From Blasia pusilla (Eukaryota): 64,000 nucleotides of DNA. The notes under the pieces were generated by a model. It made no database searches, had not been told where the DNA came from, and saw only the letters and a program-made list of their open reading frames with translations. Positions 31,945-61,107 of the stretch are shown piece by piece. The stretch spans positions 34,162,001-34,226,000 of the forward strand of contig CM114271.1 of NCBI GenBank assembly GCA_050084515.1, read 5' to 3'. Both the position numbers and the translations under genes were made by a program. Position 1 is the stretch's first letter, and each line of letters starts with the position of its first letter.

Positions 31945-32150
31945 TTCATAAATTTGTACACCTTCATTGTTTGGACAAATACGAATGCGACAATGTTTTA
32001 AAATTAAAACTTAAAACATGATATATGTATGTTTTTCACAATCATATAAATTTTGACACCTTCGTTGTTTGGAAAAATATGAATGCGACAATATTTTAAA
32101 CTTGAAGTTTAAAACACCATCTACATATGGTTTTCATCATCATATGTATA
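31945..32150 (+). repeat. Local tandem duplication of a ~98-bp unit
   Basis: caccttc.ttgtttgga.aaata.gaatgcgacaat.ttttaaa occurs twice. Confidence 0.7.
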
Positions 32151-32407
32151 TTTTTTTATGTTGGAATTTGGAACCCATACACATGCACTCCTTACTGGGC
32201 ACATATATACCAAAAATCTGCCCGTATACAACACCAATTTTAGCCCGTCTCAATTCCCAAATGTTCCATCCAAATGAAAGGAGGATGAAAGAGAAGATAT
32301 TTATATCATTATATTTATCATTATCAATGTGTGGAGAATTTCATCTTTGAGTCGTCTACGCACTTTGGAATAATCTATATTATTACGAGAGAACGTCTTT
32401 TTGATTT

Positions 32408-32544
32408 TGTCGTGCGCATACATATTGCTACACAACATACATCGCTCGTCACATCTACACCACACAACACCGATCTTCCCCACACACGGTAGATCCACAC
32501 ATGTACAAAAATCAACTCATACATATACATGGAGATCACAAAAC
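32408..32544 (-). repeat. Terminal repeat B2 (3' end of the element)
   Basis: Near-identical to 33027-33164. Confidence 0.9.
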
Positions 32545-33024
32545 AAAAATAAAGAGTTGTAAAAATGGCACACCCGGCCTAAAACTCCACTCCTCAATCT
32601 ACATCGGCATATCGAGCCTCGTCCACCCTGTGCTATCAAGGAATCCGGACGCTAGCACCCTAGTCCTAGCTCACACACATACAAGGGAGGTGCTCCAACG
32701 GCCGAACATGAGAAAGATGGCTTAGGAAAACCATCTTCCTCTCTTATATAGGGTTGGGAAGAGCCAAAAGGCTTTTCCCCTAAAAATAGCCCTTCCCTTG
32801 GTAACCTGTGCGCACAGGTTACCAGGGGCGGGTGACCTGGTCAACAAGTCACCCGACTGTAAAAGACCTCAACATGAAAGTTGTCAGGAACGACGTTCTT
32901 GACACAATGGACCTATCCTCAACCTCATCCGACACTGTGGGACAAAATTACACTCAAGATAGTCCGCTGGATCCTACGCCCTATCCACGATAGATCTCGG
33001 CCTATCAGTTACTCGGATGTGACA
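32545..33024 (-). repeat. Repeat A2 (LTR-like, TATA-containing)
   Basis: Near-identical to 39220-39660 apart from two indels and scattered substitutions. Confidence 0.9.
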
Positions 33025-33026
33025 GT

Positions 33027-33164
33027 TGTCGTGCGCATACATATCGCTACACAACATACATCGCTTGTCACATCTACACCACACAACACCGATCTTCCCC
33101 ACACACGGGTCGATCCACACATGTACAAAAATCAACTCATACATATACATGGAGATCACACAAC
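33027..33164 (-). repeat. Internal repeat B1, joined to A2 by a 2-nt spacer
   Basis: Plus strand reads ...GTGACA-gt-TGTCGT... at 33019-33032; near-identical to 32408-32544. Confidence 0.9.
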
Positions 33165-33240
33165 CGACCCCCTAGCTGGCAGTTGGATCCCCCTAACTCC
33201 AGATAGAAAATATCACATCTCTCTGACATGACCTACTACC

Positions 33241-34554
33241 CTATACACATCTCGGACACATCCATCGTCCTGTGGGAACCACATCAAGAGGGGGGGTCAG
33301 ACATGACATATGCCACCCTCGAGAACAACCATCACATACCAACATGGTGGTTGCACCCCTCGCAAATCTGCACAACATACACCTTAAGCCTACAAGTACC
33401 ACTGCCAAGCTTGGATCCACCGTCCCATCTACGTTCGGAAGATGACATGGCGCACAATTGCGCACATGATCCTTCCAAACCATACCATCCCGTCCCTCCA
33501 ACATGAGGACTCCGGTCGGTAATACCTCACGCACACGTAGGATCGTACGCCCTGTTGTAACATCTAGCGTCGTAGGTGTCGCCTGCTGTAAATACACGTA
33601 ATCTCCAGGATGAAACCTCCTAATCCTTGGACGATAACCTCCTCCACGAATAGTCGCGTACCTCAATGTATCTCTATGCTGGGCAATAGCTAAGTTCTCA
33701 AAGGCCATAGGCATAACTCTACAAAAAACTTCTGCCCTCTGAGAACATGCTTGTACCCACACATTTGGATCATGAATATCTAACACCTCCGCCATGTCAC
33801 GTCGAATCGCTGCAGGTAAATCTGGCTCTCTCCCAAAGAGCAAAAAGTATGGTGAAAATGACGCCAAGGATGCCTGCCGACTAAAGCGATAACCCATAGC
33901 CAACCATGGCAACTGTAGGTCCCACTCCCTCAACTGTCCCCGCTGCAAGCCATACTTGCGCAATCCTCTCTCCACCGTTTGTACCACTCTCTCCGCCAAC
34001 CCATCCGCCTCAGGATGATCTCTAGACGTGGTGCGGTGATCTATCAACGCCTGATCACACAAGGCCTGAAACTCTCCCCTGAACTCGGTACCCTGGTCAG
34101 TCAACACCTCCGCCGGTGCACCAAAGTGACTAAGCACACGATCTAGAAACGCATAAGCCGTTCCTCGCCGCCTTTGTGTCGGTAGTGCCACCAACTCTAT
34201 CCACTTGGAGAAATGCTCCACCATGACCAACATGTACCTATGATGACGCCCTGTCAATGGCAAAGGTCCCGCAAAGTCTAAACTCCACCGATAACCTAAA
34301 CCCATAATCAGCAAAGGATGTAACTGCGGAGTGGGAGCATTGAAGGATGCTCACACTCTGTCACATACCATACATCTGGCCACAAACTGCTGTACCCCAG
34401 TATGCATGCCGTGCCACCAATACTGAACCTGGAGTAAACTGTAAGTACGCTTTATTCCAAAATGTCCCAACTCCTCATGGGCCTGTCGCACTACACGTGC
34501 TCGCTGGGAAGGATGACGTACCACTCGTATCCTACCATCTCCCCATACCCGCAA
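33241..34554 (-). pseudogene. DDE integrase with N-terminal HHCC finger and C-terminal PHD finger
   Basis: AHEELGHFG..CMVC; SLDFAG, LTDQG, ADGLAERVV; C-terminal CMLC..CDGC..H..C..W.CPRC (Cys4-His-Cys3). Interrupted near 34350. Confidence 0.92.
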
Positions 34555-34868
34555 AATGTGAGTCCCCTCCCACCTGAACCTCTTGGCTCTCTGTAGGATC
34601 CGATCCCGCTCCTAGCACTCCTTTGTACTCGCAATGACGCCGCGGTGAGCAAGAACTCCACAACCTCCACGTCGTCATGGATATCACGACCACCTGTCGC
34701 CTCCTCACTAACCTCCGGATCCAAAGACTCATCATCCAATCCCACCACTGGAGTCATCACCTGTGGATGACCTGCCATAGTCAACCAACAAAGATAGGCA
34801 TATGCATGCCAACCGGGCACCATCTCCTCATCACTCTCTCCGTGCCATCGAGCTCCTGTGTCGTCTCT

Positions 34869-35291
34869 CTAACTCGGACATGGGTTACGACTCAACCCAT
34901 CCGCATCCTGGTTCAGCCGACCTGGCCTATGAACCACCTCAAACTCATACTCCAGTAGTAATAGAGCCCACCTGGCAAGCTTTCCTGTGAGCTTCTCGGA
35001 CTCCATCAACCACCTCAACGGCTGATGATCAGTGATAAGTGTGAAAGGGTTGACGAATAAATAGCACCTAAAATGTGCCACAACCCACACTGCAGCCAAG
35101 CACTCTCCCTCGTAGGAGCTGTACTTTGCCTCTGCAATGTTGTTCGATCGGCTCGCGTAAGCCACAACGAACTCCCTCTCCTCGTCATCCCTCTGAGTAA
35201 GCACTGCTCCTAGACCCAACATGCTCAAATCCGTATGTAACTGGAATGGGCGACCCCTAACCGGTCTCTGTAAAATGGGTGAGGACGTCAA
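34869..35291 (-). pseudogene. RNase H domain (Ty3/gypsy type)
   Basis: FQLHTD.S..GLGAVL, VVAYASR, YSSYEGECLA, LITDHQPL, ADGLSR. Confidence 0.92.
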
Positions 35292-35306
35292 CCTGTCCTT
35301 GAGCTC

Positions 35307-36321
35307 CTAAAATGCTCGCTCCTGATAATCTCCCCACAACCAAACCTGATCAAGTCTCGTCAACAAGGTCAAAGACTTTGCGATTGCACTAAAACCCTTG
35401 ACATACCGTCGATAGAAGTTCGCCAGTCCAAGAAATGCTCGGACTCGACTCACATCTGTAGGGCGTGGAATCTGCGCAATAGCCTCTACCTTCGTCTGCT
35501 GAACGCCTAACCCACTCGGGTATATGGTGTGTCCCAAGTACTCAATCTGCTCCTGAAAGAATTTGCACTTTCCTAGATGTAACTTCAGTCCATGTAACTG
35601 CAATCGCCGAAACACCTCCTCCAAGTGTCGCTCATGCTCCTCAACCGTGGAACTGAAGATAAGAATATCATCTATGTAACATCGTACAAAATCCAAGCCA
35701 GCCAGAATCCTATCCATAACTCTCTGAAACTCCGCAAGCGCGTTCTTCAATCCAAATGGTAAGAACCGCCATCGATACAAGCAATCTCTCCCGAACCGAT
35801 CTATCCCCAGAATCGTGTCTTCTCCTGTCCTCCAACTCCGATAGGAAGGCGATGATAGCCAAAGCACGGAGATCTAAAGTACTGAAGATCTTTGCATGCC
35901 CTACTGCATCAAAGATCTCCTCAGGAGTAGGCATGGCATACCGATCTGACCTCGTTTGATGGTTGATAGGACAATAATCTCCACACATCCGCCTATCCAT
36001 CCAATTTCCATACATATCCTTCTTCGCCGGCATGACCGTGGTAGATGCATACTCCCCATGTGATAACTCCACAAGTCCTGCCTCCAACAAGTCCCGACTC
36101 TTGCTCTGAATCAAGGCTCGCTCCATATCAGAATACCTGTAGGGTCGACGAAAGATCGGCGTATCACTAGCCAACTCAATCTGTATCCTAGGACCCTTCA
36201 GCGTACCCAAGTCTCTCATACTGAAGGCAAAACAACTGACATGCCCTCTCAGAAACCTATGAACTCGCCGTTGCTCTCCTCCTATCAACTTGGGACCTAT
36301 CATAGGCTCCCAAGTCTCCAT
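35307..36321 (-). pseudogene. Reverse transcriptase (Ty3/gypsy type), frameshifted
   Basis: RRMCGDY..IN, FSTLDL, LPFGLKNA..FQRVMD, CYIDDILIFS, IEYLGH, FLGLANFYRRYV. Confidence 0.93.
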
Positions 36322-36619
36322 CGTGACCTCACTCGGAGAGGACGCAACCTCCGACTTTGGTTGCTATGTAGCAACCCTAGCCACCTCTACAACAGCCACT
36401 CCACTCTGACTTCCTACACCATGCTCCACATCCGAAAAATGAACATGTGCTACTCTAGCCGCCTTCATGATCTCTCTTTCGAACGACGCCCTAGGAAGTC
36501 CATGGGTGCCTATCTCTCTCGTCTCGCTTGACCAATGCATGTCAGACCACTTGAGGCAATGGTCCAACTCGTGGACGTGACGGCATGGATGACACTTGCA
36601 TCTGTCTCAGCTCAGCCAT

Positions 36620-37573
36620 ACCTAGGCTGACTATCCATGTGAGACAGTTGAGGTCCATCGCCTGCCCCAACACCTCTCTTCGTGATGCCTCAGTCATCCA
36701 TGGCACCGCCGTAGTACCGGTGGTGAACCCCATGGCGCGCTCGCGCTCATCTGCTGTAGGCTCCTCCAATACTCCGGTCACCTCATCCCAAATCATGCAT
36801 GGCCCTTCCTGATGAAAGGCATGGGATGTTGGGAAGCTCACCAACGTAGGTAAGGCTGCCCTCAACTCCCCCACCCTATTGGCCATGGCCAACGGTGGTC
36901 TATCATCCCGTGTCGCCACCTGAGATCGACGCCCTGAGCCCAAAATAGCATCCACTGTGAGATGTGGTGCTCTCTGGACTCCATTGTAGGCTTGACTTAG
37001 TACCTCTGATGATATCAGGTTCGTCCACCACAGTCGTGGACGATGGGCACGTGACCCAACTCTCGCTGCATCTAACAACACAGCAGGTCCCAACCAGGAC
37101 CTCACGTGATGTACACTCGTCATCACACGTACACGAGTGTCTCCCAACAACGGCACGTTCTCCAAAATGTACGCTGGAGAACATATCTGACTCTCCTGCA
37201 AATGTCGTACTACTCGCAACATCTCCCAAAACATCCCTCACCTCGGATCCTGCAATCCAAATCCTCGGCCAATTGATGAATGACCATGACATGACCATCC
37301 AGCAATCACCAAATGAATGGTGCCAACTCTATCCAGATACTGTGCCCCCACCAAAGAGATGTCGGCGGGTAGCGTATGCTGGTATCCCCGTACTGCAGAT
37401 ACCGACAACAACTCAAGATACCTCTGGACCAATCTCGCCACGTGACGTAATGATACTCGCAGCGCGGTCTCATCTCTCTCCACATAAAGGTACTGATGCA
37501 CCCGTATGCCCGCCTGCAATATGGTAGCCAATCCGGTGCTAATCCCTCCGAAGAGATCTAACACCCTAACACC
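36620..37573 (-). pseudogene. DNMT3-like C5-cytosine DNA methyltransferase domain inside the retrotransposon pol (one in-frame stop at 37238-37240)
   Basis: Motif I VRVLDLFGGISTG; II YVERD; IV LVIAGWSCHGHS; VI YILENV; VIII HRPRLWWTN; IX ERERAMGF; X RREVLGQAMD. Linear I-X order as in DNMT3, not the permuted DRM order. Confidence 0.9.
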
Positions 37574-37959
37574 CTCCTCTGGGCACTGCCACACAACAGG
37601 TGTGGTATCTAGTGGGGTCATCGTCTCCACTCCAAGAGCCCGATCGCCACGTGACTCTCGCTGCTCTGGGATAAAAACATGACTCCACGCGTGCCTCACG
37701 AGGTTGTTGACACTCTTTTGTAGCTCCCGAGTTGTACCCCACAATGGTGAAGAGGCCTCGCCAACATGGGAAGAGATGGGATGAGACCCGCCATGGCCTG
37801 TCTCTCCGTGGGACATACCGCTACTGGGACATCCTCTGCATGTGCGTTCCCCTCCAACAACTCTCCTGGCCAGCTAACACTACATGTGAAAGCCGCCAAC
37901 GTGGTCACAGACTCGCCTCGTGATCGACCACCTCGTCCCGCAAACTGCAGGGGTAACTG

Positions 37960-38400
37960 ACTCATCCGGCCGTCACCTGACCGCCATCCTGGCCGATAAG
38001 CAACGGTCTCCTCCCAGAAGTCAAGGATGAATCCTAGGGAATATAACATTGTACTCCCCACCAACACATCGTACGACTCAGCTGGTGTCCGTCGCATGCT
38101 ATGGCTGGACTCTGACAAAAATATCTTGTCGAATCATATACTGAGTGAGTGATACGCCCCCAATCGAGGTATGTATCTGGAAGGGACAAGGCTCAATGTC
38201 GGCCTTCTGTAACCCCAACGCTAAACACGCCCCCTTCCCTAACATCAAGGGTTGCGCTCCCGAATCAAGTAGGACGCGCTGCGGGTGGTATATCGTCCCC
38301 GTTGGACTAACCAAGCGAAATACTCCAGATCGGTTATCCAGTAACACTACTCCAGGTGTCACCACTGCTCGCTCTATGGCCGGTCGAGCTGGCATATCTA
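37960..38400 (-). pseudogene. Retropepsin aspartic protease domain, frameshifted
   Basis: RVLLDSGAQPLMLG active-site motif, then YDVLVG..L...GFILDF in the next frame. Confidence 0.8.
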
Positions 38401-39205
38401 CCAACTTTGCCGCCGCCGCATGCCATGACTCTGTGGGGAACGTCCCAAGCACCGGCTCTGAGGGCAAGTCCACCACCTCCTGAACTACCTCTGAACAAGA
38501 AGTAGTCATCTCTCCACGCTCATACAACGTGGCGGCCAACCGGAACACCTCAGATGGTCCAACTCCCAACGTCGCCAACTCTATGGTGGAAAATAGCAGA
38601 GTCTGACTCACTCTAGTGGCCACCTCCAACACTATAGTCGAAACTGACTCCACTCAAGCCGGCATAGGAGTTGTCACTCCAACTCCTCGTGACGTCGACG
38701 TAGGTGCCTGAATTGTAGGCACCGCTGGTCGTCGAGGCACCATCGATGGTGTGTGTAGTGCCTCCGACAATGTGAACGACTGTGGAACCCTGGCCTGCCG
38801 CCCATCGGTCCCCTCTGGTGGATCAATCTCAACTCCACCTCTCGATGGCTCCTGACTCCGTGGTCCTCCAGTCCTTGTCCGTGACCTAACCCTAGACCGG
38901 CCCCGACCTAGCTAGCCGTCTTTACTTAACAGCCCCCCGGTGGCTGCAAGACCCAAACTTTCCTTTCTTCTCTCTCTCGACACCCTCACTTGCGTACACG
39001 CGACGCCCCACCACACACTACACTCAGCTGCTGTCCCCCATCAATCCGCACCAGCAAAATCTGAGAAAAACGGACAGCGCTTCCGCCCACGGCCTTCCGA
39101 ACAGAAAAATGACACACAAAATGTCACACACACGTCTCCAGGGGCTCCCGACCAAGGCAACTCGCTTGCCTACCTGCAAACATTGAATTCCCACCAGCCC
39201 CCTGA

Positions 39206-39219
39206 CATCTTTCTCATGT
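39206..39219 (-). promoter_or_regulatory. Putative self-priming primer-binding site (ACATGAGAAAGATG) immediately downstream of repeat A1
   Basis: Perfect 14-bp complement of 39381-39394, which begins about 32 nt downstream of the minus-strand TATATAA. Confidence 0.7.
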
Positions 39220-39660
39220 AAAAATAAAGAGTAGTAAAAACGGCACACCCGGTCTAAAATTCGACTTCTCAATCTACATCGGCATATCGAGCCTCGTCCA
39301 CCCTGTGCTATCAAGGAATCCGGACGCTAGCACCCTAGTCCTAGCTCACACACATACAAGGGAGGTGCTCCAACGGCCCAACATGAGAAAGATGGCTTAG
39401 GAAAGCCATCTTCCTCTCTTATATAGGCCCTAAAAATAGCCCTTCCCTTGGTAACTGCGCACCCCGGGTGACCTGGTCAACAAGTCATCCGGCTGTAAAA
39501 GACCTCAACATGAAAGTTGTCAGGAACGACATTCTTGACACAATGGATCTATCCTCAACCTCATCCGACACTGTGGGACAAAATTACACTCAAGATAGTC
39601 CGCTGGCTCCTACGCCCTATCCACGATAGATCTCGGCCTATCGGCTACTCAGATGTGACA
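39220..39660 (-). repeat. Repeat A1 (5' LTR-like end) with TATATAA box at ~39419-39425
   Basis: Matches 32545-33024; begins TGTCAC on the minus strand. Confidence 0.9.
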
Positions 39661-39810
39661 ATTTGCAAACACCTCTCTAATTGAAAAATGAATAACAATA
39701 AAATATTTCACATATTACGGACAACAAATTTTTTTAAATTTAAAATGATATATTAATCTTTTTTATTTCCCGCGTATGGTAGTTGCATCTTACTCGTCAT
39801 CCTTTCATTA

Positions 39811-40330
39811 GCGGATGTTGTAGTGATGGATCCTACGCCGGAGGCGGTGCGAGCCCAAGTGGTAACACAAGAGAGATTGCTACAAAGAGCGGCGGCGGTC
39901 AAGAAGACCCACATTTATAGTCGACTTCATGATGAACATCGATTTATCCCCCTAGCTATTGAGATGTACGGGGCGATGGGGGAGAGGTTTGACTCGTTCC
40001 TTACGGATTGCGCCCATCATCTCCAGTCGAGAAATGGGTTGTCCTTAGCCACTGGGATACTTTATTGTAGGCAACGGGTCTCCATAGCTTTGCAGCGCGG
40101 CTAGGCAAATGGGCCTGCGGCAGGCTCAGGCGGTTGGAGACGCCAACGCTAGAGCCCACTTAGTAGTAGTCATAGTTCTCTAGGTGTTGCTAATATGATC
40201 TCTGCTGTTGGTGATTTTGGTCATTGGGGGAAGGCCCCCTTCTTTCTCCTCGGAGCCGGTTCTAACTTCCTGAGGTCTATTTTTTGGTTCTCTATCATTT
40301 GTATCGCGATGGGTTTTCTTCATATATTTT
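39811..40330 (+). mobile_element. 5'-truncated 3' fragment of the same CRE-like LINE family (RLE C-terminus and 3' UTR)
   Basis: Aligns by eye with ~5077-5590; encodes AAAVKKTHIY..HRFIPLAIEMYGAMGERFDSFL..RQRVSIALQRG. Confidence 0.85.
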
Positions 40331-51879: not shown

Positions 51880-52125
51880 TAATGTGTGTTGGGAATCCAA
51901 ATCAGGTTAAGTAGATGGTGTTGTAAAGAGCTTCCTGGATGACACTTGAAGTTCTGCACCAACACTCTTGTATGGTCAGCACTCACCCTGTTTGAGAGTG
52001 TCTCCCTCCTCTCATATAGTACCTTCTTCACTTCTTCCTCTCTCTACACCCATCCCAGTCTCAAGCACCGTCCAACCAGGGCACGGGATGTATGGTGGCG
52101 AGGCCACGACAGGCACCACTTAATG
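51880..52125. repeat. Dispersed ~245-bp repeat, copy 1 (copy 2 at 60819-61064)
   Basis: Colinear, clearly homologous sequence in the same orientation. Confidence 0.85.
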
Positions 52126-52797
52126 TACAGTCTATCTCACTCTATGCACACTCGACGCCACTGTCAGTGATGCAGTCATAGGTTTCACATGAAGACTGGC
52201 TCAGGATTCTATGCTTGCATCTTGCAGTGGGGATGTGAGTGATGGGGCCATGATACACAAGTTTAATTACCGAGAACATTTGCCATCACATTGAATCTCA
52301 TCAAAGCAAGAATGAGCCCACTTCAGGAGGAAAGTGTTCCATTTCTCAACCAAAACGAATGAAATTCGAATATAGGACCTCATAGCCATGAACTCTTCGA
52401 CAAAGCACTTTTTTGGTGACCAAGCTTCCCCCGTTCAGGGTTAGGTCCCGGACCGCTTATAAAGATGTAATGTACACAGTGGGAATCACAAGAAGTGTGA
52501 TTGGCAGTGTAGGAATACCCACGATGGGAAATGGGGAAAAGCAAGAATTCCAGCTTGGCGAGCTAGTTTAGCCTGATCGAGGTTCTGCCACATTTGTGCT
52601 GCAGCCAACCCCTTGGTTTGGAATCATGCTATTGGCCCAACCCCTGAAAATAGCATGTGGAATTTTCAAATTCAGTGCTCCTACCTACACCTACGCCCAT
52701 TTGATCAAACGAATGAATGTTATCTAAGAAGCTCAACATCCAAATGGAGGATGTTGGAAGAATACTTTCTTTGCAGATGATCCCATGAAGCTCCATT

Positions 52798-59913: not shown

Positions 59914-60503
59914 TGTCATAACTTAGTTAGCCAAAAGGTAAAATTCGATCTTGTTGACGACGTAGAAAGTAACAGATGGTTTGAGCATAACTTTAGCTTG
60001 AGGTGTCGGATGAGGTTGGCAATAACTCTATTTGGTTAGGATTATCGTCTAAGAAAATTCGTGTCTTTCGCTATATTGGGCCATATGACCCATTGACTGA
60101 GTCAACGAAATCGATCGGTAACCTATATACGTATATTACTAACCTAGGGCTATTTTGGGGGAAAGTTCCCTTTTGGCTCTTCCTAGGGATATATAGATGA
60201 AAGAGATGGCTTTCAAAAGCCATCTTTCTCATGTTGAGCCTTTGGAGCATTTAGAGTTTTAGGATTTGCTAGAGTCTTGATTCCCTCATGGCAAAGGGTG
60301 GATGTGGCTCAATATGTCGATGTAGATTCAAGAGTGGATTTGCGGTTGTGTTACTTTTACTTTGATTTTGTTATGTGAACTTGATGTACATGCATAAGTG
60401 TGTTTTTGTATTTTTGTGGAACTACCTATGTGTAGGGAAAATTAATGTTGTGTCCATGCGACCCAAAAATGTGGATTATGTAGCGATGTGTATACGCACA
60501 AAA
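59914..60503 (+). mobile_element. Diverged solo A+B terminal unit of the DNMT-gypsy family
   Basis: Reverse-complement blocks of A then B: gtgtcggatgaggttg, gggctatttt, gccatctttctcatgtt, tgtagcgat.tgtat.cgcac. Starts TGTCA; flanks ACTT/ACTC (3/4 TSD match). Confidence 0.8.
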
Positions 60504-60818: not shown

Positions 60819-61064
60819 TAATGTCTATTGGGGATCCCAATCAGGTAAAGTAGATGGTGTGGTGAAGAGTTTCTTGGTTGACACTTGGAAGCTCCGCACG
60901 AACACCTTGTTTGGTCAGCACTCACACTATATGAGAGTGTCTCCCTCCTCTCATATAGCACCTTCTTCACTTGTTCCTCTCTCTACACCCATCCCAATCT
61001 CAAGCACCGTCAAACCAGGGCGGAGGGTCTATGGTCACAAGGCTACGATAGACACTACTTAATG
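60819..61064. repeat. Dispersed ~245-bp repeat, copy 2
   Basis: Homologous to 51880-52125; followed by a (CT)n tract at ~61074-61106. Confidence 0.85.
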
Positions 61065-61071
61065 AGTAAAC

Positions 61072-61107
<36 letters not shown>

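Follow-up and report, generated by a model that had tools for sequence, protein, structure and literature searches.

The retrotransposon described here lies on the minus strand of a 64,000-nucleotide stretch of Blasia pusilla DNA (the window, whose positions serve as coordinates throughout; the element is described in element sense). It is decayed and belongs to a clade of Ty3/gypsy retrotransposons found in streptophytes, and its repeats form a split direct arrangement in the order A1, internal region, B1, AC, A2, B2. Because dozens of relatives share it, this A..B-A-B layout looks like the clade's normal integrated form and the family's normal way of inserting. The favored explanation, fairly probable, is that the DNA was joined end to end, most simply as a 2-LTR circle, and reopened at a palindrome located inside the repeat defined by reverse transcription; that a whole streptophyte clade of DDE-integrase retrotransposons must integrate in this way is a further reading, slightly more likely than not. 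A first-pass annotation of the same DNA had arrived at a permuted 2-LTR circle, an interpretation that is well supported overall, if indirectly. The architecture, its recurrence, the positions of the priming sites, the target-site duplications, and the distinction between one fixed and one variable joint are read directly from the copies themselves.

Architecture and coding content of the element

The features of the element, together with a related unit elsewhere in the window, are as follows.

39661..39664, minus strand: target-site duplication, 5' copy (AAAT in element sense), matching 32404-32407
39220..39660, minus strand: A1, left terminal repeat, starting TGTCAC and holding the TATA box and predicted transcript start; without 39 bp of A2 (repeat comparison)
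39425-39419, minus strand: TATA box in A1 (sequence)
39381..39394, minus strand: predicted first 14 nt of the transcript and putative self-primer, CATCTTTCTCATGT, 31 nt after the TATA box
39206..39219, minus strand: putative self-priming primer-binding site (PBS), ACATGAGAAAGATG, directly after A1; exact complement of 39394-39381
38099..38653, minus strand: putative aspartic protease fragment (LLDSGAQ), broken gene (weak Pfam match to gag-asp_proteas, E 0.19)
36542..37873, minus strand: Dnmt3-like cytosine-5 methyltransferase domain, two frame fragments (PDB matches, E from 0.0017)
35307..36363, minus strand: reverse transcriptase, two overlapping frame fragments (RVT_1, E 4e-23)
34869..35306, minus strand: RNase H (RT_RNaseH, E 5e-34)
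33241..34611, minus strand: integrase overall (Pfam domains)
34611-34351, minus strand: integrase H2C2 zinc domain (Integrase_H2C2, 6e-17)
34350-33241, minus strand: integrase DDE core and C-terminal PHD finger (rve, 7e-15; PHD, 1e-10)
33168..33173, minus strand: polypurine tract (PPT) AGGGGG adjoining B1 (position conserved in relatives)
33027..33167, minus strand: B1, internal copy of the right terminal repeat, ending ..CGACA (repeats and relatives)
33025..33026, minus strand: 2-nt spacer AC of the palindromic B/A joint GACA-AC-TGTC, the proposed integrase cleavage site (exactly 2 nt in 14/14 aligned relatives)
32545..33024, minus strand: A2, second copy of A (repeat comparison)
32408..32544, minus strand: B2, right terminal repeat, with GACA at the element's end (repeat comparison)
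32545/32544, minus strand: A2/B2 joint, the proposed end-to-end (U5/U3) junction (joint variability)
32404..32407, minus strand: target-site duplication, 3' copy (sequence)
59916..60495, plus strand: solo A+B unit belonging to a related family (identity about 70-73%), B directly after A (sequence comparison)

The two copies of A (39660-39220 and 33024-32545) are 95-96% identical in ungapped blocks and only 88.5% identical over 480 columns, the latter because 39 bp just upstream of the TATA box are absent from A1. B1 (33164-33027) and B2 (32544-32408) are 96% identical, and repeats of 137-480 bp at such identity are far beyond chance. The sequence after A1 is unrelated to B. B1 ends in ..CGACA, followed by AC (33026-33025) and then by the TGTCAC with which A2 starts, and the element as a whole runs from TGTC at 39660 to GACA at 32408 between duplications of AAAT (ATTT on the plus strand) at 39664-39661 and 32407-32404. 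The first-pass annotation had described this order with its AC spacer and no B after A1, the TGTC/GACA ends with a 4-bp ATTT duplication, and the internal GACA-AC-TGTC junction, all of which are found where it placed them; the repeat B1 is likewise present, but its start, given there as 33164, is probably 2-3 nt earlier (33167/33166), directly after the G-run AGGGGG at 33173-33168, by comparison with relatives.

Set against a Ty3/gypsy element, the TG..CA termini and a duplication within the usual 4-5 bp agree, as does the order of Pol, in which RVT_1, RT_RNaseH, Integrase_H2C2, and rve follow in sequence behind a weak protease match. The identical full-length terminal repeats of that group are missing, since A stands on both sides and B only on the 3' side, twice; the split direct repeats A1-B1-A2-B2 correspond to the DIRS order of PAT, Toc, and Ngaro. 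Nevertheless, no match to a tyrosine recombinase (Phage_integrase) was obtained among 46 open reading frames of at least 60 amino acids on both strands, where rve is present; tyrosine-recombinase (YR) elements are also not known to make target-site duplications.

The complete gene order is protease, Dnmt3-like methyltransferase, reverse transcriptase, RNase H, DDE integrase, and PHD finger. The domain search gave no chromodomain. The protease region is conserved in 12 related loci. The methyltransferase fragment of the window, for which 29 of 30 PDB matches are Dnmt3A/B/C (best E 0.0017), is 53-64% identical to the domains of relatives, one of which (L025) scores 31.8 bits against PF00145 (cutoff 22), matches Dnmt3 in 29 of 29 PDB entries, and carries the motifs DLFGG, PCQ, and ENV. 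A homologous region is present in 33-34 of 80 related loci, and a Dnmt3-type C5 methyltransferase domain inside a gypsy Pol is the feature that marks elements of the KnitGypsy-Dnmt3 type.

Recurrence of the layout in related loci

The census covered 80 related metagenome loci, 51 of them assessable for layout; as these are short-read contigs, some repeat collapse is possible. The order PPT-B-NN-A-B-flank, where NN is the 2-nt spacer, occurs in 25 of the 51 (19 independent insertions), which come from three or more families whose integrases are 47-78% identical to that of the window and include five loci with internal deletions. Six further loci read PPT-B-NN-A and then reach a contig end or a B2 that could not be scored, and 20 (17 independent) have A..B without a second repeat. 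One full-length relative, L048, repeats the whole A..B-A-B layout, and at the 5' ends all nine independent cases have unrelated flank before A and PBS-like sequence after it, never B. Duplications of 4 bp are perfect in the window, in L011 (ACTA), and in L078 (TCCC), match at three of four bases in L048 and L006, and have no matching counterpart in L036, one full-length copy. Independent insertions with different flanks and different duplications (AAAT, ACTA, TCCC) share the same ends; a comparison of independent insertions was among the checks that the first-pass annotation had proposed. It had also named conventional [A+B]..[A+B] repeats in other full-length copies as evidence against its interpretation; a conventional LTR layout was found in 0 of the 51 assessable loci.

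Two simpler explanations bear directly on these counts. The window copy is decayed and its reading frames are broken, as might befit a conventional [A+B]..[A+B] or [B+A]..[B+A] element that was rearranged in this single case, inserted in tandem, or misassembled. This explanation is hardly credible, for an identical order of parts recurs in 25 further loci, which stem from independent assemblies and differ in their flanks, none of the 51 assessable loci is conventional, and the region is covered by contigs from two DNA runs, each belonging to a different study. Likewise, given that A..B elements and a solo A-B unit both exist, the layout might be a composite in which a short non-autonomous A-B derivative inserted beside an A..B element. 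This is very improbable, because independent adjacent insertions would not reproduce a fixed 2-nt palindromic joint: the spacing is exact in the window and in 14/14 aligned relatives of two families, the GACA-NN-TGTC joint is found in further families (L008, L009, L034), and A2-B2 is not flanked by a separate 4-bp duplication.

Priming sites, joints, and a proposed cycle

The G-run PPT adjoins the first base of B1 in 14/14 aligned PPT-B-NN-A-B loci and adjoins B in 20/20 A..B loci. On the upstream side, the bases directly after A1 are complementary to the predicted start of the element's own transcript, a motif that occurs again in A2 at 32719-32706. In three divergent families this exact complementarity extends over 14, 12, and 15 nt, beginning 0-1 nt after A and with its partner 31-32 nt past the TATA box. 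Shuffled controls reached these lengths in 0/2000, 2/2000, and 0/2000 trials, respectively; the 14-nt match of the window was reached by 0/2000 and 0/5000 shuffles, and 500 random internal 18-mers gave complementarity of at most 8-10 nt. Because it recurs in three divergent families, the complementarity points to self-priming of the Tf1 kind from a predicted transcript start, although RNA reads examined for that start yielded no usable one. A primer site after A had been expected in the first-pass annotation and is present, but as a putative self-priming site and not a tRNA site, which was unforeseen.

As in other Ty3/gypsy elements, the PBS lies by the upstream repeat and the PPT by the downstream one, but the repeats that they bound are A1 and B1. 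Consequently, the repeat made by reverse transcription would be B+NN+A, as the first-pass annotation had proposed, and the integrated copy would be permuted with respect to it.

The two joints behave differently. The B/A joint is a fixed palindrome, GACA-NN-TGTC, with a spacer of exactly 2 nt in 14/14 loci (GC in 8, AC in 4, GT in 2), and the spacer variants are attributable to later point mutation since one insertion sampled twice differs GC/AC (L033 versus L035, L055 versus L062). The A/B joint in 11 family-2 insertions either shows a small deletion or carries an addition of 0, 1, 2, or 3 nt, these states being scattered over the tree of the insertions, and the additions AT and ATT agree with the start of the PBS; the window's own organism has at least 10 variants of the joint between A end and B start. 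Such variability appears to resemble that of end-joined circle junctions, although the copies are old (B1/B2 identity 76-96%) and part of it could therefore be later mutation.

The cycle that these observations suggest is, taken as a whole, fairly probable. Transcription would begin in A1, about 31 nt past the TATA box, and stop in or beyond A2; by folding back on the complementary site after A1, the first 12-15 nt of the RNA would, as in Tf1, prime the minus strand, and the plus strand would be primed by the G-run just upstream of B1. Reverse transcription would then yield DNA with the terminal repeat B+NN+A, the ends of which (A end and B start) would be joined, most simply as a 2-LTR circle. 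Integrase would cut the GACA-NN-TGTC palindrome inside one repeat, leaving CA-3' ends and 2-nt overhangs, and insertion with a 4-bp stagger would produce A, internal region, B, NN, A, B. Three parts of this cycle, namely where transcription starts, the circle, and cleavage of the palindrome by integrase, are reconstructed from integrated copies. Given that the attachment palindrome would lie inside the repeat defined by reverse transcription, only the permuted A..B-A-B form would regain terminal redundancy for the next round; the 20 A..B loci have none and would be unable to replicate by this cycle, and such copies may descend from circles with one repeat or have arisen when B1 later recombined with B2. 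Bacterial insertion sequences of the IS3/IS30 type offer a parallel, in that a DDE enzyme acts on abutted ends a few bp apart in a circular intermediate, but they are DNA-only and use no reverse transcription, so that the likeness is one of analogy.

The opening of a 2-LTR circle at the internal site, as envisaged in the first-pass annotation, thus fits the layout, the PPT, the PBS, and both joints, but the circle itself is known by inference and one expected product is missing. A symmetric 2-LTR circle has two identical palindromes, and cutting the other one should yield the mirror permutation A-B-A-internal-B, which was seen at 0 of 9 independent 5' ends; the model consequently requires either that one site be preferred or that the mirror form collapse faster. 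The same absence weighs on a route that dispenses with a free nuclear circle, in which integrase cuts the left-repeat palindrome of linear cDNA and host end-joining closes A end to B start during or after integration. This would give the same product, the same variable A/B joint, and the same 4-bp duplication, but the two sides of the broken chromosome must stay together until a second repair is complete, the mirror form is equally predicted, and the retroviral precedent is cleavage of circle junctions; the route has a small but appreciable probability.

A further possibility is a DIRS/PAT-like route, in which reverse transcription uses the internal B1-NN-A2 as a bridging template to form a closed cDNA ring, the A2/B2 joint is copied, and the DDE integrase opens the ring. 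The layout is that described for PAT and Ngaro (PMC4157794), and the Klebsormidium repeats have been termed DIRS-like by de Mendoza et al. (PMC5890265). However, a PPT at B1 and a PBS at A1 are the hallmarks of standard two-jump reverse transcription, with B+NN+A as the repeat, B2 lies outside the region that two-jump synthesis copies, and the A/B joint varies in length between close relatives where the templated B/A joint never does, all of which leave this route rather improbable. If integration from an end-joined circle is instead obligatory throughout the clade, split direct repeats would generally mark integration from circles, an outcome at which tyrosine-recombinase and DDE elements would have arrived separately, and the clade would be an example from nature in the long debate on whether circles can be integration precursors.

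Relation to known systems

The repeat layout itself is already in print once, for KnitGypsy-Dnmt3 of Klebsormidium nitens, where a figure legend (Fig. 4c) gives DIRS-type repeats (A, coding, B-A-B), and the account of the element in that paper describes neither PBS nor PPT, gives no joint, and proposes no model of integration (de Mendoza et al. 2018, PMC5890265). The first-pass annotation had held A..B-A-B to be typical of tyrosine-recombinase elements and not of gypsy elements, which is borne out by the order in PAT and Ngaro but not by KnitGypsy-Dnmt3; the latter and the window element alike combine gypsy domains with a Dnmt3-type methyltransferase inside Pol (PMC5890265). Integrase-PHD proteins of K. 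nitens are 54-55% identical to the window protein, and the window element belongs to another host, its best named protein relatives being from liverworts (Calypogeia fissa, 80%, and Marchantia). We infer that the two elements form one group, KnitGypsy-Dnmt3 being known here by description. Gypsy-7a_cRei of Chlamydomonas, an active, PHD-bearing gypsy element, is also compared by description: its legend mentions 'LTR subparts' and a left LTR without the last 8 bp of the right LTR, and in its listed domain order PHD precedes INT, unlike that of the window element (PMC9940879).

PAT, Toc, and Ngaro share the repeat order of the window element, with an internal B-A pair downstream of the coding region that mirrors the joined termini, but carry a tyrosine recombinase, whereas the window element has a DDE integrase, TG..CA ends, and a 4-bp duplication (PMC4157794). 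Self-primed reverse transcription is described for Tf1/sushi and plant Tcn1 elements, in which a sequence after the upstream repeat complements the 5' end of the element's own RNA and replaces a tRNA site, the position at which the window element has its complementarity to the predicted 5' end of its RNA; their LTRs, unlike the repeats of the window element, are conventional (PMC6317226). Finally, the integrases of foamy virus and HIV-1 are able to cleave 2-LTR circles at their palindromic LTR-LTR junction, and common to the retroviral case and the present proposal is a DDE integrase that acts on an internal CA..TG palindrome to give processed ends (PMC1180852, PMC1905944). In retroviruses the palindrome is the U5/U3 circle joint itself and the provirus is unpermuted (PMC1180852, PMC1905944), whereas in the window element the palindrome lies inside the repeat defined by reverse transcription, with a 2-nt spacer, and the proposed U5/U3 joint would be carried into the chromosome.

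Split repeats in the element and its relatives

The split-repeat arrangement of the decayed Ty3/gypsy element at window 32408..39660 is real and family-wide. Repeat comparison placed the two copies of each repeat part, A and B, where the first-pass annotation had put them, and together with reading of the sequence gives the following features.

Features of the element
39660-39220, minus strand: A1, starting TGTCAC
33173-33168, minus strand: G-run AGGGGG, between internal sequence and B1
33164-33027, minus strand: B1, ending CGACA
33024-32545, minus strand: A2, starting TGTCAC
32544-32408, minus strand: B2, ending CGACA

In element sense (minus strand) the order is AAAT flank, A1, unrelated internal sequence, AGGGGG, B1, the spacer AC, A2, B2, AAAT flank; no B follows A1, its place being taken by the unrelated internal sequence. 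B1 and B2 are 96% identical, and A1 and A2 are 95-96% identical in ungapped blocks and 88.5% overall, the difference being due to 39 bp that are missing from A1 directly before its TATA box. This stretch, retained in A2 (32790-32752) and gone from the 39427 region of A1, contains a short inverted repeat and is also present upstream of the TATA box in a solo A+B unit that belongs to a related family (~59916-60495, plus strand; ~70-73% identical to A and B); in that unit B directly follows A, and the degenerate ends show no clear duplication. Two direct repeats enclosing that unit (51880-52143 and 60819-61082, plus strand; stretches of 69 and 177 nt, 84-86% identical, 8939 bp apart) could belong to another element as its LTRs. 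About 260 bp from the 3' end of the element studied here, the AT-rich flank contains a 98-bp tandem duplication (31948-32143, plus strand; 82% identical).

Eighty related loci (handles beginning with L) were fetched from metagenome contigs with an integrase alignment and sorted by self-comparison, cross-comparison and reading, independent insertions being counted after contigs with a common flank were merged. In the layouts below, PPT is the polypurine tract before B1 and NN the 2-nt spacer.

Layouts among the 80 related loci (layout; loci; independent insertions)
PPT-B1-NN-A2-B2-flank; 25 (20 complete, 5 internally deleted: L050, L057, L064, L066, L040); 19
PPT-B1-NN-A2, then contig end or no B2 scored; 6 (L008, L009, L034, L037, L042, L043); not merged
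PPT-B-flank without second A or B (A..B type); 20; 17
Too short for judgement; 15
Unclear or interrupted; 14

The first-pass annotation had held that conventional [A+B]..[A+B] repeats in other full-length copies would mark this copy as a rearrangement, tandem insertion or assembly artefact; none of the 51 assessable related loci is conventional, and the layout is not a one-off. Three apparent exceptions, L064 and L040 (integrase-A-B) and L066 (integrase-B-A), proved to be split layouts with internal deletions. The loci comprise at least three families, whose integrases are 47-78% identical to that in the window: family 1 at ~75% (e.g. L003, L016, L019), family 2 at ~50% (e.g. L030, L048, L070) and the L042/L046 family at 62-64%, while the L008/L009 family (69%) and L034 (52%) share the same B|A joint with no B2 scorable. 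L048 provides a complete second example, with A1, 9.7 kb, B1-AC-A2-B2 and flanks GCAT/ACAT. At the 5' end, A lies between flank and primer-binding site (PBS) in 9 of 9 independent cases, and A-B in none. Perfect 4-bp target-site duplications accompany the window's element, L011 (ACTA) and L078 (TCCC); three of four bases match in L048 and L006, and L036 has no matching 4-bp duplication.

Primer sites and the reverse-transcription repeat

The G-run extends right up to B1 in each of the 14 split-repeat loci that were aligned and in each of the 20 A..B loci, the position of a polypurine tract. At the other end, sequence beginning 0-1 nt past A1 is exactly complementary to a site in A that lies where transcription is expected to start, 31-32 nt beyond the TATA box.

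Complementarity between the site after A1 and A (source; length; site after A1; partner in A)
Window; 14 nt; ACATGAGAAAGATG; CATCTTTCTCATGT
Family 1 (L006); 12 nt; ACTCAAAGAACT; AGTTCTTTGAGT
Family 2 (L048); 15 nt; AATTCTAGAAAAACT; AGTTTTTCTAGAATT

The pairing and its position are kept across the three families though the sequences differ. Shuffles of A attained the observed length in 0/2000 trials for the window (0/5000 in a repeat run), 2/2000 for family 1 and 0/2000 for family 2, and 500 random internal 18-mers, used as a control, reached a maximum complementarity of 8-10 nt. The same arrangement is known as self-priming in Tf1/sushi elements and has been predicted for plant Tcn1 and TAR elements (PMC6317226). 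No tRNA-type PBS adjoining A was found; the candidate TGGGAATT (39186-39172, minus strand) lies 25-45 nt downstream of A and was rejected as not adjacent. That motif, whose start resembles a tRNA-type PBS, is conserved in the window and in family 1 (L010, L011 and L026, ~40 nt after A). Separately, an inverted repeat (39414-39389, minus strand; AGATGGCTT-TCCT-AAGCCATCT) spans the predicted transcript start in the window, at 39394 in A1, its upstream arm PBS-like, and the A copy of L006 has a similar hairpin, CTCAAAGAAC-AT-AGTTCTTTGAG; such hairpins may be relevant to self-priming or its control.

Given a PBS after A and a PPT before B, ordinary two-jump reverse transcription would yield a B+NN+A repeat at both DNA ends, as the first-pass annotation had deduced, and the integrated copy would be a circular permutation of the reverse-transcription product. 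A conventional [A+B] LTR eroded by deletions was considered and rejected, because the PPT sits at B1 and the PBS at A1.

Two RNA runs bearing the same species label, aligned to the window, indicate that the family is transcribed in sense (first mate on the plus strand at 5-50x over the internal region, against ~0-2x on the opposite strand); most reads are only 90-95% alike to the window's element and so derive from other copies. The aligned reads gave no usable transcript start or end, a listed end at 39420 coinciding with the 39-bp deletion in A1 and probably reflecting alignment clipping. The flank beside A1 (39653-39900) is strongly transcribed, its reads running against the direction of the element (first mate on the minus strand at 29-53x), with loose read ends at 39809 (52 and 89 reads). 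A joint from 32392 to 39661 that skips the element, seen in one DNA contig and 5+5 RNA reads, has its left edge exactly at the A1 start and its right edge 16 nt past B2, and may represent an empty allele or a paralogue.

Joints and the proposed integration from circles

The two joints differ in their constancy. Between the ..CA of B1 and the TG.. of A2 there are exactly 2 bases in 14 of 14 loci (GC in 8, AC in 4 and GT in 2); the window has AC. With GC the site, GACAGCTGTC, is a perfect palindrome, AC and GT being its two transition variants; two insertions each sampled twice show GC versus AC (L033 versus L035, L055 versus L062), so the variants arose after insertion, which we infer to be deamination of methylated CHG sites. 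The A|B joint, by contrast, is variable in length: among 11 family-2 insertions it has zero to three added bases (none, T, AT, ATT or ATA) or a small deletion. AT and ATT agree with the opening bases of the PBS, and the joint states are scattered on the tree of adjoining sequence, with differing sister pairs (L033/L030, L038/L055, L056/L077). In family 1 the joint differs by 1 nt (3/4 versus 1/4). The family is also very abundant in DNA-run contigs from the window's organism, which hold at least 10 forms of the joint between A end and B start, 1-2 letters being inserted in some of them; chromosomal A2|B2 joints and free circles are indistinguishable there. The end-joined U5|U3 junctions of retroviral circles are likewise variable and carry primer-site remnants.

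The simplest reading is that of the first-pass annotation, integration from a circular intermediate. The cDNA ends would first be joined into a two-repeat circle; within one of the repeats, integrase would then cleave the palindrome 3' of each CA, so that the 2-nt spacer gives both ends a recessed CA-3' and an overhang of 2 nt; and these ends would be inserted with a 4-bp stagger. Only the A..B-A-B product would restore an A downstream of the coding region, and with it a 3' R for the next round. Several independent lines of comparison among integrated copies support this interpretation indirectly: the recurrence of the layout, the PPT position, the self-priming PBS, the fixed versus variable joints and the duplications. 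The chemistry of the proposed cut has precedent in reports that retroviral integrases cleave 2-LTR circles at their palindromic junction (PMC1180852, PMC1905944). A rival order of events, in which cut linear DNA integrates first and end-joining follows, remains in contention; DIRS-like templated ring closure is disfavoured, as both the primer sites and the variable A|B joint count against it.

A symmetric circle would contain two identical palindromes, and cutting the other one predicts A-B-A-internal-B, a form seen at 0 of 9 independent 5' ends. The A..B copies, which are without terminal redundancy, may derive either from circles with a single repeat or from recombination between B1 and B2, and for some of them repeat collapse in short-read contigs remains a competing explanation. 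It is speculation that A-B-A-internal-B collapses fast into A..B through A/A recombination; such a collapse would agree with split and A..B insertions being nearly equal in number (20 including the window versus 17).

Coding content and comparison with known elements

The internal region contains broken frames for a putative protease (assigned from a weak match), reverse transcriptase, RNase H, an H2C2 zinc domain, a DDE integrase core and a C-terminal PHD finger; among 46 ORFs of at least 60 aa on both strands there was no match to a tyrosine recombinase. Named relatives of the integrase-PHD protein come from liverworts (Calypogeia fissa, 80%; Marchantia), Sphagnum, Klebsormidium and Chromochloris. 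Between protease and reverse transcriptase lies a Dnmt3-like cytosine methyltransferase (36542-37873, minus strand), identified through PDB sequence search and the intact relative L025. For the window's fragment 29 of 30 PDB matches are Dnmt3 chains (best E 0.0017), and Pfam returned no match to the window's own fragments; L025 (117-1292) has the motifs DLFGG, PCQ and ENV, scores 31.8 bits against PF00145 (cutoff 22), and has Dnmt3 in 29 of 29 PDB matches. The region occurs in 33-34 of the 80 related loci, and the best-scoring of the listed contigs, family 2 included, are 36-64% identical there. In the published Gypsy-Dnmt3 case the domain was presented as having been acquired within the Klebsormidium lineage (PMC5890265); the liverwort-like relatives suggest that the lineage is wider.

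More broadly, the primer sites imply a reverse-transcription repeat of B+A, yet chromosomal copies appear cut at a palindrome inside that repeat, with the end-to-end joint internal. In the textbook account, LTR retrotransposons and retroviruses integrate the linear reverse-transcription product, and two-LTR circles are regarded as dead ends. If the circle reading is true, the normal substrate of a DDE integrase would here be joined ends, gypsy elements would share a mechanistic link with DIRS-like elements and with bacterial insertion sequences that form circles, and the DIRS-like repeats noted without comment on a gypsy element in 2018 would be accounted for. Standard LTR finders would pair A1 with A2, expecting TG..CA ends and a matching duplication; an abundant bryophyte and charophyte family and its Dnmt3 cargo would consequently be mis-delimited or missed.

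The 2018 observation, gypsy content with DIRS-like repeats, stands in the Fig. 4c legend of de Mendoza et al., which offers no mechanism (PMC5890265). A literature search of incomplete coverage found no other paper naming that Klebsormidium element (KnitGypsy-Dnmt3); nor did it turn up, for elements of this kind, an account of the primer sites, of a palindromic site inside the element or of a circle model. In Chlamydomonas, the active element Gypsy-7a_cRei combines a PHD finger with 'LTR subparts', and its left LTR stops short of the final 8 bp of the right one (PMC9940879, Fig. 6 legend). Split direct repeats define the PAT, Toc and Ngaro tyrosine-recombinase elements (PMC4157794), from which the window's element is set apart by its DDE integrase, the lack of a recombinase and its target-site duplication; with gypsy elements, in turn, it agrees in gene content but departs in having no conventional LTRs.
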